Assembly (NCBI RefSeq): GCF_963921235.1 | Contig: NC_086097.1 | Span: 11,284,001 to 11,348,000, forward strand | Direction: 5' to 3' | DNA from: Mobula hypostoma | Lineage: Eukaryota | Length of the DNA stretch: 64,000 nucleotides | In this document: one piece after another, positions 18,390 through 32,821 of the stretch | Position numbering within the stretch: the first letter of the stretch is position 1 | Layout of the letters: the number at the start of each line of letters is the position of its first letter | Notes under the pieces: model-generated | What the model was told of the DNA's origin: nothing | Seen by the model: the letters and a program-made list of their open reading frames with translations, nothing else | Database searches by the model: none | Translations under genes and position numbers: made by a program

Positions 18390-19505
18390 TAATAAGTGGT
18401 GAGAAGCAGAGTGAAACAAGGTTTTGTCTTGGCAGTGACCCTCTTTGGAATCTTCTCCATGCTCCTTCACAATGCTTTCGCAGACCGCACTGAAAGCATC
18501 TACCTTCGCATTAGAGATGATGGCAAGGTGTTCAACATCGCTTGTTTGCACTCCAAAACCAAAGATAGGACAGCCCTCATCCACAACTTGCTGTTCACAG
18601 ATGATGCAGCATTGACGTCACACACTGAAGGTGGACTCCAACAACTGATTAATCACTTCACCCCTGCCTACAAGGTGTTTGGGTTAACCATCAGTCTGAA
18701 GACGACAAACGCCATGGCCCAGGGTGCAAAATCTCCCCATCACCATTGATGGTTGCTCTCTTGATGTAGTCAACTCCTTGGATCAACCATCCCCAGCTCC
18801 CTGTCCCTCAAAGCAGAGGTGAACAGCAGGATTGCCAAAGATGCAGCTGTCATGGCCAGATTGAACAAGAGAGTGTGGAACAGCAGACAGCTGACAAAGA
18901 AGACCAAGCTGTGTGTGCACCAGGCATGTGGGCTCGGCTAAACTCCTTCTACTTACGCTGCTTCGGGTGCATCTTGCACAACTCCTGGCGGGGCAGAATC
19001 ACCAACACAGAGGTTGTGCAGCATCCATCCACTACTCAGCCACAGACCCCTCAGATGGTTGGGGCATGTCAATCTAATGGATTGGGGATGGATTCCCAAA
19101 GACATGCTGCATGGCGATCTGACCGAGGGTCACCGCCCACGAGGAAGACCATGGCTCCGCTACAGGGATGTCTGCAAGCATGTTATGAAGCTGGCAGCAT
19201 TGACCTCAACACATGGGAGGAAACAGCTGGAGGCCAGACAACAGGAGAGCCGCAGTCAAAAGTGGTGTACAACGTGCTGAGATAGCAAGGACCAACATGC
19301 TCATCAACATGACAGCCAGAAGAAAAGCCAGAGCTGCATCACCCAGAGCCCCTTCCTCCGTCACCTGCAGCCGCTGTGAGAAAGACTGTCACTCTGGAGT
19401 GGGGCTGGACAGCCACTCCAGAAAGTGCGAATAGCCCCAAGTCTACAACCCCAAGAACCATCAGAAACAGTGTCACACCATCGTCTCTCGAGATCTACAG
19501 ATGCT
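18390..19505 (+). mobile_element. RTE-clade LINE, decayed RT and C-terminal zinc-finger-like end
   Basis: VKQG.VLA.TLFGIF, LLFTDDAAL, FGLTISLK.T, LRWLGHV, R.RGRP.LRY.DVCK and C..C...CHS..GL.SH in ORFs 18396..19434. Confidence 0.88.
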
Positions 19506-29440: not shown

Positions 29441-32120
29441 TGGAACAAAATAATAGTCTTTGGTGATATAATTCACAATAACTCCTCACTGTGGTATCAA
29501 TCTGTGGGTAAAGAGGTTTATCCTGAGTTCTCCATTTTATATATCTTTGGGGACTACCTTTTGCAGGTGACATTTGGTCTTGCTCTTTCCAAGCAGAAAC
29601 ATTGCTTTTGTACATGTTTTATAAATATTATAACATTCAGCCTTCTTTTTTTCAATAAAGAGACCCATTTTGTTTATTCTTTACTTTTGTTTCAACATTT
29701 TTATGGTTATTTTAACAATAATTTCACTCCACTAGTTTGATTGAGTCAGAATTCAATATGTGTGACTGCAGGACATTTAGAATGTCTATGTATCTTACAG
29801 ATTTTGCAAAGATCTGGGTAGCTCCTCAGAAATACACTGCATAACTAAAATGACACTATCTAATAAACACAGAAAGCTCACCATATGTAACACATAATGT
29901 ACTCTTCTGGTGATGAGATTGAACTTGCTATTAAGCAAAATCTGGCGAAGCTCATTCAAAGCTCAGTCTCTAATTGGGCTGCAGGTCAGAATGACAGCTT
30001 AAAACATCTCTTCATTAAGTGTAATTGGTACGGTTGGTAAAATCATGTACGAGGCTGTAGACATTCTGAGGGAAGCTTCTCTTTGTCAACACCTAAGCCT
30101 TTGAAGCTAATTGAAAATCCAGGCAAAAGCTGCTTCAAACTTTTGGCAAATAAGAAAAGAAACGCTCTCAGAAGGCTTCCATTAGAGTAATAATGTGCCA
30201 TATTCCAGCTGATGGAAAACAATGCCTCACCCCCTTTTGCTCATTATTCGAGTTATTTGTTAAATAAATTCTCATAAAGTCTTAATTGAGCACATCTGCT
30301 GCACAGGATCTTCATTCGCAGAATGTTGTAAGCATGCTAATTACACAAACAGGGAAACACAATGGTGCAAACTTAAATATAGGTAAATGTCACCCCGGAG
30401 GCCTTTCATTTGAACCTGTATAAAGCACTACACCTGTGAAGAGAGGAAGGCTTCCTCAGACTTGCATATAAACCAGGGCACTCAGCAATTGTTAAAGCAG
30501 ATAGCAAGGCAGGTGAGGTAAAGTCAGTATTTCAACCTCTACTCAACTGTATCGTAAGATTTAATCTTTGTGCTTGCCAAATGTCTCACCACCACTGTGG
30601 CCTTGAACGTAACAGAACTTCGATGACTGCTGTGGGACTGCAACGCCACCATGGGAACATGGAAGTTAGGTGAACACGGAGTGGGACTGATAGAGAGTGG
30701 TGACGAGTGATGATTGGTTCTGATTTGGTGGTTCGTACTGGTGCTATGTATTGGTCCACATACCGCAGCATTTCATACCAATGCAAAAGGTATAAAATAG
30801 AGCAGTTGGGGGCCTTGGGAGTAGTTCTTTGAGACCTCACCTATGGGCTAGTTGTGAAGAGAGCCGTAGATTGAGTAGGAGCTGTGCTACAGTGAAAGTA
30901 TTTTAATGCTTGTTCTGTTCTGCCCAATAGAAGTAGTTTGGTAGTTCTAAGTAGATAATTGGAGTTTGTGTCTTTCAGCCTGACCTGGCAGAACCCAAGA
31001 AACAAAATATCAACCAAACTCAACATGGTGGGGAATAGGATGGGCATGGTGTAGTCGTAGTTATATTGGAATAAGGATCATAATCATTGTTTAGCTGGTA
31101 TTATAAGGACCATTGTCTTCAAACTACCAGCTAAACAATTTGAAAGCATGTTATAAGACAAGGAAGGATTACTAGTTTTAAAATTATTTTAACCTCTGTC
31201 CAAACGTAATTTACGTAGGAATGGACCATGCGCATTAAGTCTGCTTACTTGGACCTACATGCAGTAAGTGACCAGAAGTCCTAGTGTTTTGGTTCTATGA
31301 CAGATCTCTTCCAGATCCCAATTTCTGTCTGGAAGTCAGTAACGTATTTTATTCTCTGTCAGCAGTGAATGAGACCCAAAGCTTTCTACTGACACCTCCA
31401 GCATATTATTACAAATTATTTTCTACTTGTTAAAGTCCAGTACTTCCATTGAGACTGAATGTAGTATTGGCCTGCTAGTTTAGGATTAGGGACACAAAAT
31501 ACCTGTTAGACGATCCCAAGCCAGGCTGCGAAAGGAAAATGGTTGTGCAATACTCTTCGGCACATATATAAAGCAACGGAGCCTAAGATTTCTGCAAGAT
31601 ACTGTAGTAATTTTATGTATTGCACTGTACTGCTGCGGAAAAAATAAACCAATTTTGTGACCTATCTAAGTGATGATAAATCTGATTCTGATATGGGTCT
31701 CTGTTGTGGACTGAGAGTGGAAAGGGGGCAGGGAGAGGGGAATCATGGTTGGGAAAAGGGGAAGGGAGAGAAGAGGGAGCAGGGAGCACCAGAGAGATAT
31801 TCTGTATTGATCAATCAACCAGTTGTTTGGAATGAGACATCAGACCTTGCCTGGTGTCTCAGGGCTGGATGTCCGGATGTGCCCCCTCCCTGCTCCTGGC
31901 ACTCCTTCTCTGCCACCTGTCCCACATTCCCAGCATCCTTTGCTCATGCCAATTTTACAAACTCAGTTTCTGCTCCACATTGACAAATACAGCACCGTGC
32001 AAAGTCATGGGCACCCTAGCTATATGTGCCTAAGAGTTATGCACGGTGCTGAAACAGTCCCACAGCTGTCTCACTAGGAACTCTTGCTCTTCCACTGCAC
32101 TCTTGGCAGTGGAATTACAT

Positions 32121-32680
32121 GTGTTCATCCATCGTCGACGTCGATGAGGACCTTGAAACAATTATTATGGTGTTGAGACTAGCGCGTGATTTGGATTTAA
32201 GTGAGGGAGAGTTGCGCAGCGTCAGCCTCACTCTCTCTTCCCAATTCCCATCTGGGTCCACTGGCAAGACAGAGTCGAGACGGCTGGAGATGGGACTAGG
32301 CGCAGTGGATGACCAGGACGCCTTCTGTGTCTTGTCCTGCTCTACACGTTCCACGACGCTTGCAGAGGCCGCCTTCTTGACCGTTGGACCTTCCATTGGC
32401 CTTGTCCGCTCAATCCTCCGGAGTCTGTCTTCACATGCTGAGATAGACAACTCCCTATCTCACCAAGGGTTTGAGATCCGTCGGCTACCCTCACCTGGTT
32501 TAACCGGCTTGTCAAAGTCATTGCCCGGGGTGTGGCCGCTGTCGCATGCAAACAGCTACGGGGAGCCACAGGTGAGAGCTGAGTGCCAGGTGGGGACCAG
32601 AGGTGGACTAACCACCCTGAAAAGGACGCAACATGTTCCCCCACCAGAGGTGCTACCCCTCCCTGACACCCCATGCACCT
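32121..32680 (-). mobile_element. Short CpG-rich retroelement (RTE-type, non-autonomous), 9-bp TSD
   Basis: GAATTACAT at 32112-32120 and 32681-32689. gatg-type 3' end on the minus strand and an HDV-like fold at the 5' end. Confidence 0.7.
32487..32672 (-). ncRNA. Candidate HDV-like ribozyme, probably inactive in this copy
   Basis: P1 GGGGUGU/ACACCCC (7 bp perfect); P2 GCUCUCACCUG/CAGGUGAGGGU; P3 GGC/GCC abutting P1; L3 starts UCC with P1.1 GG. J4/2 reads UUAA where CNRA is expected. Confidence 0.6.
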
Positions 32681-32821
32681 GAATTACATACCTGAAGTCA
32701 GAACCACAGTTTCTCCTTATGTTGGTAGGACAAAAGACAAAAGTTAAGTTCAAGTTTATTGTCATCTGAATATGCAAGTGTACAACCTATTGAAACAACA
32801 TAGTGTACCTACAAAACATAT

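Follow-up and report, generated by a model that had tools for sequence, protein, structure and literature searches.

The element in the window

This study concerns a stretch of 64,000 nucleotides (nt) of Mobula hypostoma DNA (contig NC_086097.1, positions 11,284,001 to 11,348,000; hereafter the window) and, within it, a short retroelement whose 5' region may fold as a self-cleaving ribozyme resembling that of hepatitis delta virus (HDV-like). On the minus strand, to which all window coordinates below refer unless another strand is given, positions 32121..32680 hold a whole copy of this non-autonomous element, 560 bp long and lacking the first G of its family; the bounds were taken from an alignment of genomic copies with their flanks, in which the copies match query positions 22-27 through 579 at approximately 94-95% identity. 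There are exactly two occurrences of the 9-bp word ATGTAATTC in the window, and they flank the ends that the copy alignment had set independently: one, the 5' target-site duplication (TSD) at 32681..32689, directly adjoins the element start, and the second, at 32112..32120, is the 3' TSD. An earlier reading made from the letters of this stretch by themselves (the sequence-only reading) had proposed a short, TSD-bounded, non-autonomous element of the class without long terminal repeats (non-LTR), which is borne out both by this word at the two ends and by the dispersed copies with TSDs and tails described below. At its 3' end (32121..32177) the element has a decayed stem-loop and a tail of the type recognized by a reverse transcriptase (RT), the tail of the window copy being only ...GAACAC.

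The pairings that the sequence-only reading had listed for the 5' region can all be read directly on the minus strand, and they were recovered by an independent descriptor script. In the register of that reading the 5' strand of P1 is the GGGGUGU at 32672-32666, which pairs with the ACACCCC at 32533-32527. P2 joins GCUCUCACCUG (32569..32579) to CAGGUGAGGGU (32487..32497) through 11 bp (32579-32569 with 32497-32487, two of the pairs being G.U or U.G), and both of its strands were identified by direct reading, by helix evaluation and by the descriptor. P3 is formed by GGC (32565..32567; direct reading and descriptor) and GCC (32534..32536), the latter directly abutting the P1 3' strand ACACCCC (32527..32533; again direct reading and descriptor). 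L3 (32537..32564) begins with UCC and consists of UCCCCGUA, then a 19-nt hairpin (32538-32556) with a GCUGU/ACAGC stem and the palindrome GCAUGC in its loop, and then a single G. The GG of P1.1 (32525..32526) pairs with the CC at 32562-32563 in L3, and next come the P4 hairpin (32505..32520; CGGCUU-CGAC-AAGCCG in its family form) and the catalytic position of J4/2 (32503). The unusual length of L3 and its internal hairpin had been pointed out from the letters alone, and both hold: the loop is 28 nt long, and the hairpin is kept in the two families described below. The canonical 5'-3' order of P1, P2, P3, P1.1 and P4 as a nested double pseudoknot is present in the window copy and in an intact copy from elsewhere in the genome (L016); these pairings, taken with the family evidence, support the earlier assignment of an HDV-like double pseudoknot to the element's 5' end.

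Upstream of the register just described lies AGGUGC (32675..32680), which we propose to be the decayed remnant of a first GGGGUGU word that formed the true P1 5' strand, with cleavage just 5' of it. The second GGGGUGU word (32662..32672) is more likely the 5' strand of a P1.2-like stem closing J1/2, a peripheral domain that occupies 32580..32674 and is closed by 32662-32671 with 32581-32590.

Set against the family majority, the window copy has 30 differences, and for most other copies the number is 6-30. Two substitutions in the window copy, C to U at 32520 and G to A at 32518, damage P4, position 32503 is U where the family has C, and the first word, for which the family majority is G,G,G,G,T,G/A,T, reads C (of the TSD),A,G,G,T,G,C. 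Having lost its catalytic C, two pairs of P4 and the greater part of the first P1 word, this copy would be unable to cleave, and it is on this ground that we, like the sequence-only reading, consider it dead. That reading had also expected the family consensus to have C at this position, and the other copies agree: C stands there in 29/29 of the other family-1 copies first examined and in 35/44 copies of an older family.

A young family and an older relative

In the numbering used from here on, e denotes nt counted from the family's first G, so that the window coordinate equals 32682 - e and the J4/2 position 32503 is e179. A search of the 3.48-Gb assembly returned 4420 first-look candidates, and the 40 that were scored were all 93-95% identical over approximately 558 bp. 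Judged by these matches the element (family 1) appears to be a young, high-copy, non-autonomous non-LTR retroelement of approximately 560 bp that is present in thousands of copies. Among 58 distinct family-1 copies a TSD of 7-13 bp, taken as an exact match of at least 7 nt, was found in 33; 9 have none at that stringency, and in 16 the script did not locate the 3' anchor. The element is like a short interspersed nuclear element (SINE) in its dispersed copies, its variable TSDs, its simple-repeat tail ((CAA)n or (CAAC)n in other copies) and its lack of an RT gene, and because the TSDs are variable and the tail is a simple repeat, they point to target-primed reverse transcription by the enzyme of a long interspersed nuclear element (LINE).

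A second, older family was noticed through a loose contig end at e77 of the intact copy, in contigs of another run. A 21-nt word of this family 2 has 2099 genome matches at no more than 2 mismatches, and 44 copies were taken for comparison. Family 2 has the whole 5' module from e1, the duplicated P1 word included. With possible CpG-decay differences set aside, the two families differ at 2/80 positions of the core (P1, P2, P3, L3 with its hairpin, P1.1 and J4/2) as compared to 37/180 elsewhere in e1-260 (Fisher p = 5e-5). Both of the core differences fall at L3 positions 4-5 (CC to AA), the CC that forms P1.1 being unchanged, and the L3 hairpin has no non-CpG difference between the families. 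The loop word GCAUGC of this hairpin (32543-32548) is self-complementary, and the sole difference there between the two families is at a CpG; two RNAs might pair with each other, loop to loop, through this word. A pattern search for a third family gave 68 matches against 6 in the control, and these look like mutated copies.

Where the module does vary, pairing tends to be retained. At e163-e176 of P4 family 1 has G-C where family 2 has C-G (the cell counts are GC 15, CG 11, UG 6 and UA 5), and e166-e173 passes from U-A to U.G between the families. The stem closing J1/2 stays paired through changes on both of its strands, with 78.7% of its alignment cells paired (helix 2 of the alignment), and an inner helix of J1/2 is A-U in 16 rows and G-C in 39. 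In the 60-row alignment 81% of the cells of the structure are paired, as compared to 34-45% with the partners slid, and 0/500 shuffles reach the observed value. When RNAalifold was given 11 representative copies, 3 from family 1 and the 8 from family 2 that lie closest to their majority, the stem of J1/2 came out together with P2, P3, P4 and the hairpin in L3, and e1-10 stayed unpaired. The sequence-only reading had looked to P1, P2 and P3 for compensatory changes, and there it found neither support nor contradiction, because those helices never vary between the families; covariation is confined to P4 and J1/2.

This pattern of conservation bears on the possibility that the head of the element is a degenerate RNA polymerase III (Pol III) promoter of the tRNA or 5S type, as in ordinary SINEs, with e1 as the start of transcription. 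The genome does hold a tRNA-like SINE with the same 3' tail, and words at e27-40 and e67-78 look, by eye, faintly like A and B boxes. Against this, ARAGORN calls no tRNA in L016, the window region and three loci give no tRNA, 5S or 7SL match in Rfam at E up to 10, and the most conserved part of the module is e103-195, the candidate boxes lying in its most diverged stretch. We consider a Pol III head very improbable.

The start of the element and the proposed cleavage site

Full-length copies start GGGGUGUAU-GGGGUGUCAGG, so that the P1 word GGGGUGU appears twice. In 22/33 TSD-bearing copies the end of the TSD lies between -1 and +3 nt from e1, and in only 2/33 does the element start at e10-11; by these TSD ends, the start of the candidate ribozyme lies at or just upstream of the element's first base. 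The sequence-only reading had placed G1 at 32672, which is indeed 8 nt inside the element bounded by the 9-bp TSD, and this is the part of its proposal that we would revise: full-length copies begin 9 nt further upstream, at another GGGGUGU, and the word at 32672 pairs instead with CCUGGCACUC (e92-101), both in the minimum-free-energy (MFE) fold and in RNAalifold. The first word has decayed to AGGUGC in the window, and so the second was taken for it.

We therefore compared two positions for P1. Placing P1 at e1-7 allows the J1/2 stem to form alongside it and puts the cut at the first base of the element, which is where a 5'-processing ribozyme needs it, because the progeny must inherit the ribozyme. 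The J1/2 domain, approximately 90 nt, folds by itself at -40.5 kcal/mol, and its closing stem, as a duplex, is worth -15.3 kcal/mol as compared to -11.8 kcal/mol for P1. A J1/2 helix that pinches P1 and P2 together is described as an activating arrangement in large HDV-like ribozymes (PMC4908430), and the J1/2 loops of R2 ribozymes are given as 216-498 nt (PMC3774820). On this model the cut site is most likely the element's first base, 9 nt upstream of the G1 originally proposed.

Alternatively, P1 might be built from the second GGGGUGU, as the sequence-only reading had it, with the cut at e10 (32672) removing a 9-nt leader and the e1 end being made in some other way, for instance by transcription initiation. 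The second word is intact in every family-1 copy examined and, among the old copies, in 34/44 as compared to 20/44 for the first word; a variant with A at e6, discussed below, would be harmless in a leader; the two copies that start at e10-11 would be explained; and a strict descriptor is satisfied with G1 at either e10 or e1. Yet a cut at e10 would give progeny without e1-9, and 31/33 TSD-bearing copies start upstream of e10. Nor is there any family-level difference between the two families in e1-14. Moreover, the second word is needed for the 10-bp closing stem, which is the more stable of the two helices and remains paired through the changes between the families; the two helices form together only with P1 at e1-7, and the closing helix corresponds to the activating arrangement reported in PMC4908430. 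We judge a cut at e10 improbable, and P1 at e1-7 is used in what follows.

Likeness to HDV-like ribozymes

In HDV-like ribozymes, as captured in published descriptors, L3 is a short single-stranded loop of approximately 7-8 nt, the second and third bases of which form P1.1. In the element the first 8 nt, UCC(CC/AA)GUA, fit this form and are followed by the 19-nt hairpin and one G. Because the loop is not short, we class the module as a variant: it is probably a new build of HDV-like ribozyme, with a hairpin in L3, and not a plain member of the class. The unpaired C at the start of J4/2, directly after P4, is present in both families and is U in the window copy. When the 106-nt core of the intact copy was compared with the 4227 families of Rfam, the single match was to RF02682, the HDV ribozyme of F. 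prausnitzii (13.2 bits, E = 1.7), in which GGGCAACGG...CCGGCUAA of the element aligns to AGGCAACGg...cCGGCUAA of the model. The likeness spans P1.1, the base of P4 and J4/2 (GGCAACGg...cCGGCUAA); the half with P1, P3 and L3 is unaligned because of the L3 hairpin.

The chance level of the fold was gauged with two descriptors. A permissive one (no C demanded, L3 of at most 40 nt and J1/2 of at most 110 nt), of the long-L3 kind that the sequence-only reading had suggested running, matches the window copy, and it is also readily satisfied by shuffled sequence; a P2 of 9 bp or more turned up in 5/30 shuffles. An unrelated permissive match in the window itself (19018-19175, plus strand), with a 6-bp P2 and an AT-rich P1.1, is taken as chance background. 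A strict descriptor (7-bp P1, P2 of at least 9 bp, CC/GG P1.1, P4 of at least 6 bp, C in J4/2), which was written after the element had been seen, gave 1 match in 1551 window shuffles; L016 passes it with G1 at e1 and at e10, and the window copy fails it, as expected of a dead copy. Taken alone, the window copy has a fold within chance and is weak evidence, so the case rests on the family, at which level the fold is far beyond chance.

A number of observations count against the ribozyme. At the level of the window copy, the MFE z-score is -0.87, which is not unusual, Rfam gave no match on the window or the element region at gathering or at E up to 10, and the permissive descriptor matches each dinucleotide-shuffled window (128 kb with both strands counted) at 3.3 loci on average. 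For intact copies the RF02682 score of 13.2 bits lies below the gathering threshold of 44, a search of three whole loci with Rfam at E up to 10 gave no HDV-type match and only five sub-threshold matches to unrelated families, all in the flanks, and RF00094 found no match over the whole genome. To our knowledge an L3 of 28 nt with a helix lies outside every HDV-like descriptor, and such a helix could be incompatible with the active site. P1, P2, P3 and P1.1 are identical in the two families and show no covariation, which says nothing either way. The shuffle control of the 60-row alignment favors any structure derived from the same sequences, and when RNAalifold was run on the full set of 60 noisy rows, no more than a 7-bp helix of J1/2 emerged. 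A nested helix of UGUGGCU with GGCCACA competes with P1 and P2. Finally, e6 (window 32676) is A and not G in 16/55 young copies, an A.C mismatch in the proposed P1. This A is partly linked to C at e426 (p = 0.0035), which marks it as a heritable variant, and A6 appears, from this linkage, to be the marker of a subfamily that has spread despite the mismatch.

Several of these points would be accommodated if the 5' region were a conserved structured RNA with another job and no cleaving activity, its HDV likeness being partial and incidental; it might be, for instance, a platform for a LINE protein, a translation or stability element for the frame downstream, or an internal promoter read as DNA. 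The absence of any Rfam model at threshold, the non-canonical L3, the amplification of the A6 variant and the ease with which chance satisfies the permissive descriptor all favor this explanation. So do the covariation in P4 and J1/2, which backs hairpins and not pseudoknots, and the fair conservation between families of e197-260, downstream of the module. It demands, however, that a C in J4/2 (29/29), the order and abutment of P3 and P1, a CC/GG P1.1 and a GGCUAA junction as in RF02682 should all have come together by coincidence, and it has to explain away a module that starts exactly at the element's first base. That the core has changed approximately 8-fold less between the families than its surroundings, and that the strict descriptor is matched by 1/1551 shuffles, also argue against it. 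We consider a non-cleaving RNA unlikely, and we think it reasonably probable that the module is a real 5'-processing HDV-like ribozyme heading a non-autonomous retroelement.

Comparison with known systems

Published work already describes HDV-like ribozymes that head non-LTR retrotransposons, and non-autonomous derivatives that retain them, such as NARTc and the R2 deletion derivatives. On the fold proposed here, the element departs from the textbook form in two respects, a conserved hairpin on the 3' side of L3 and a P1 5' word duplicated to serve the J1/2 stem. Narrow literature searches, which covered titles and the starts of abstracts, found no report of a helical insertion in an HDV-like L3.

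One close counterpart is drz-Agam-2-1 with P1.2, which in the description given in PMC4908430 has the same double-pseudoknot core and a long J1/2 closed by a helix beside P1 and P2; ribozymes of its type are tied there to the processing of non-LTR retrotransposons. The element differs from it in the 19-nt L3 hairpin, in a closing helix whose 5' strand nearly repeats the P1 strand, and in matching no Rfam model at threshold. The R2 elements offer a second comparison: a 5'-end HDV-like ribozyme frees the RNA from a co-transcript, and non-autonomous copies are reported to retain the ribozyme and the 3' end (PMC3774820, PMC3414825). R2, however, inserts site-specifically in 28S rDNA, whereas the element is dispersed with TSDs of 7-13 bp, and the P1.1/P3/L3 core of R2 is described as 15 conserved nucleotides (PMC3774820), whereas here a helix interrupts L3. 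In Trypanosoma cruzi the non-autonomous NARTc and its LINE, L1Tc, are reported to have a common HDV-like head, Pr77, which cleaves at the element's first base (PMC3383444, PMC3185411). Pr77 is also a promoter and is a compact 77 nt, as compared to approximately 195 nt for the module described here, for which no LINE with the same head was found.

A proposed mechanism

We propose that the first approximately 195 nt of the element encode a large HDV-like self-cleaving ribozyme. As no promoter of its own was detected, the element would be transcribed within longer host transcripts. In such an RNA, P1 would pair e1-7 with e149-155, and the J1/2 domain of approximately 90 nt would be closed by a 10-bp stem of e11-20 with e92-101. 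P2 (e103-113 with e185-195) and P3 (e115-117 with e146-148) would then lead into L3, composed as in the window copy, from which C119 and C120 would form P1.1 with G157 and G156, and P4 (e162-167 with e172-177) would be followed by the catalytic C at e179 and UAAAC. This nested double pseudoknot would cut just 5' of the first G and thereby give the RNA an exact 5' end. The RT of a partner LINE would recognize the 3' stem-loop and (CAA)n tail, and target-primed reverse transcription into new sites would leave TSDs of variable length. The fuller proposition, in which a SINE-like element is headed by an active ribozyme with a conserved L3 hairpin and a duplicated P1 strand where a Pol III promoter would otherwise stand, and has its tail in common with a tRNA-like SINE, is one that we regard as evenly balanced between right and wrong.

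If this mechanism holds, thousands of copies would derive from read-through transcripts trimmed by self-cleavage, and the element would clearly exemplify, within a large genome, a non-autonomous element of high copy number with a 5' end defined by self-cleavage and no internal promoter. A tRNA-headed SINE on the same tail would make for a natural comparison of two modes of launching a SINE. Most discoveries of HDV-like ribozymes have relied on descriptors in which L3 is set at a few nucleotides, and to these a build of this kind would be invisible. Were one with a helical L3 to prove active, the known range of the fold would be extended; it would hint that numerous relatives have so far escaped notice, and structural biologists would have a natural example on which to probe the tolerance of the active-site loop. 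If there were no cleavage, the element would be an ordinary repeat with a structured 5' region.

Candidate partners, a chimeric copy and other observations

With regard to the enzyme that mobilizes the element, the most abundant RT family in the genome, judged by the 150 best RT matches of 332,531 first-look candidates, is an L1-like LINE with an open reading frame (ORF) 1 of 339 aa and an ORF2 of 1264 aa. It was set aside as the partner, having no similarity to the element. One of its copies (L061, G000:C40:77476400-77483400, minus strand) has both ORFs open, and long open frames are present in many of the 150 scored copies. A query with the C-terminal 47 aa of the element's open frame, described next, found no long LINE frame among the 150 matches listed (frames of 59-300 aa), and there is no tail-bearing LINE fragment in the window or in the flanks of the sampled copies.

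In frame 0 the element has an open stretch of 113 codons (window 32121-32459, minus strand; L016:1721-2059, plus strand), which meets no stop before running off the end in the (CAA)n tail, whereas each of the other two frames is interrupted by several stops. An ATG in this frame at 32396-32394 is ACG in L016 and ATG in L026. The 113-codon frame matches no Pfam family above cut-off (the best is DUF746, E = 0.03) and no longer homologues.

Another copy is chimeric. In L053:1421-2125 (plus strand) the first approximately 520 nt of the element run, from a point within the 3' stem-loop, into a tRNA-like SINE that has a B-box-like GAGTTCGAATCC and the same 42-nt tail, and in which ARAGORN calls no tRNA; the chimera as a whole is flanked by one TSD of approximately 10 bp. 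Its form suggests template switching between two RNAs, and because the chimera has the common tail and one TSD, both RNAs may have been substrates of a single reverse transcriptase.

Copies nearly identical to the element are also present in contigs of runs labelled as four organisms (X1, X9, X10 and X11), for example in a 205-nt contig with 4 differences, which on the face of these matches would make family 1 common to related species or labels. The contigs are of uncertain kind, and no point at which molecules start was apparent in them. The flank of one copy (L026:1109-1229) holds a long, near-perfect inverted repeat to which the mir-2131 model gives a match at E = 2.3e-05, well below gathering; it is probably a palindromic repeat.

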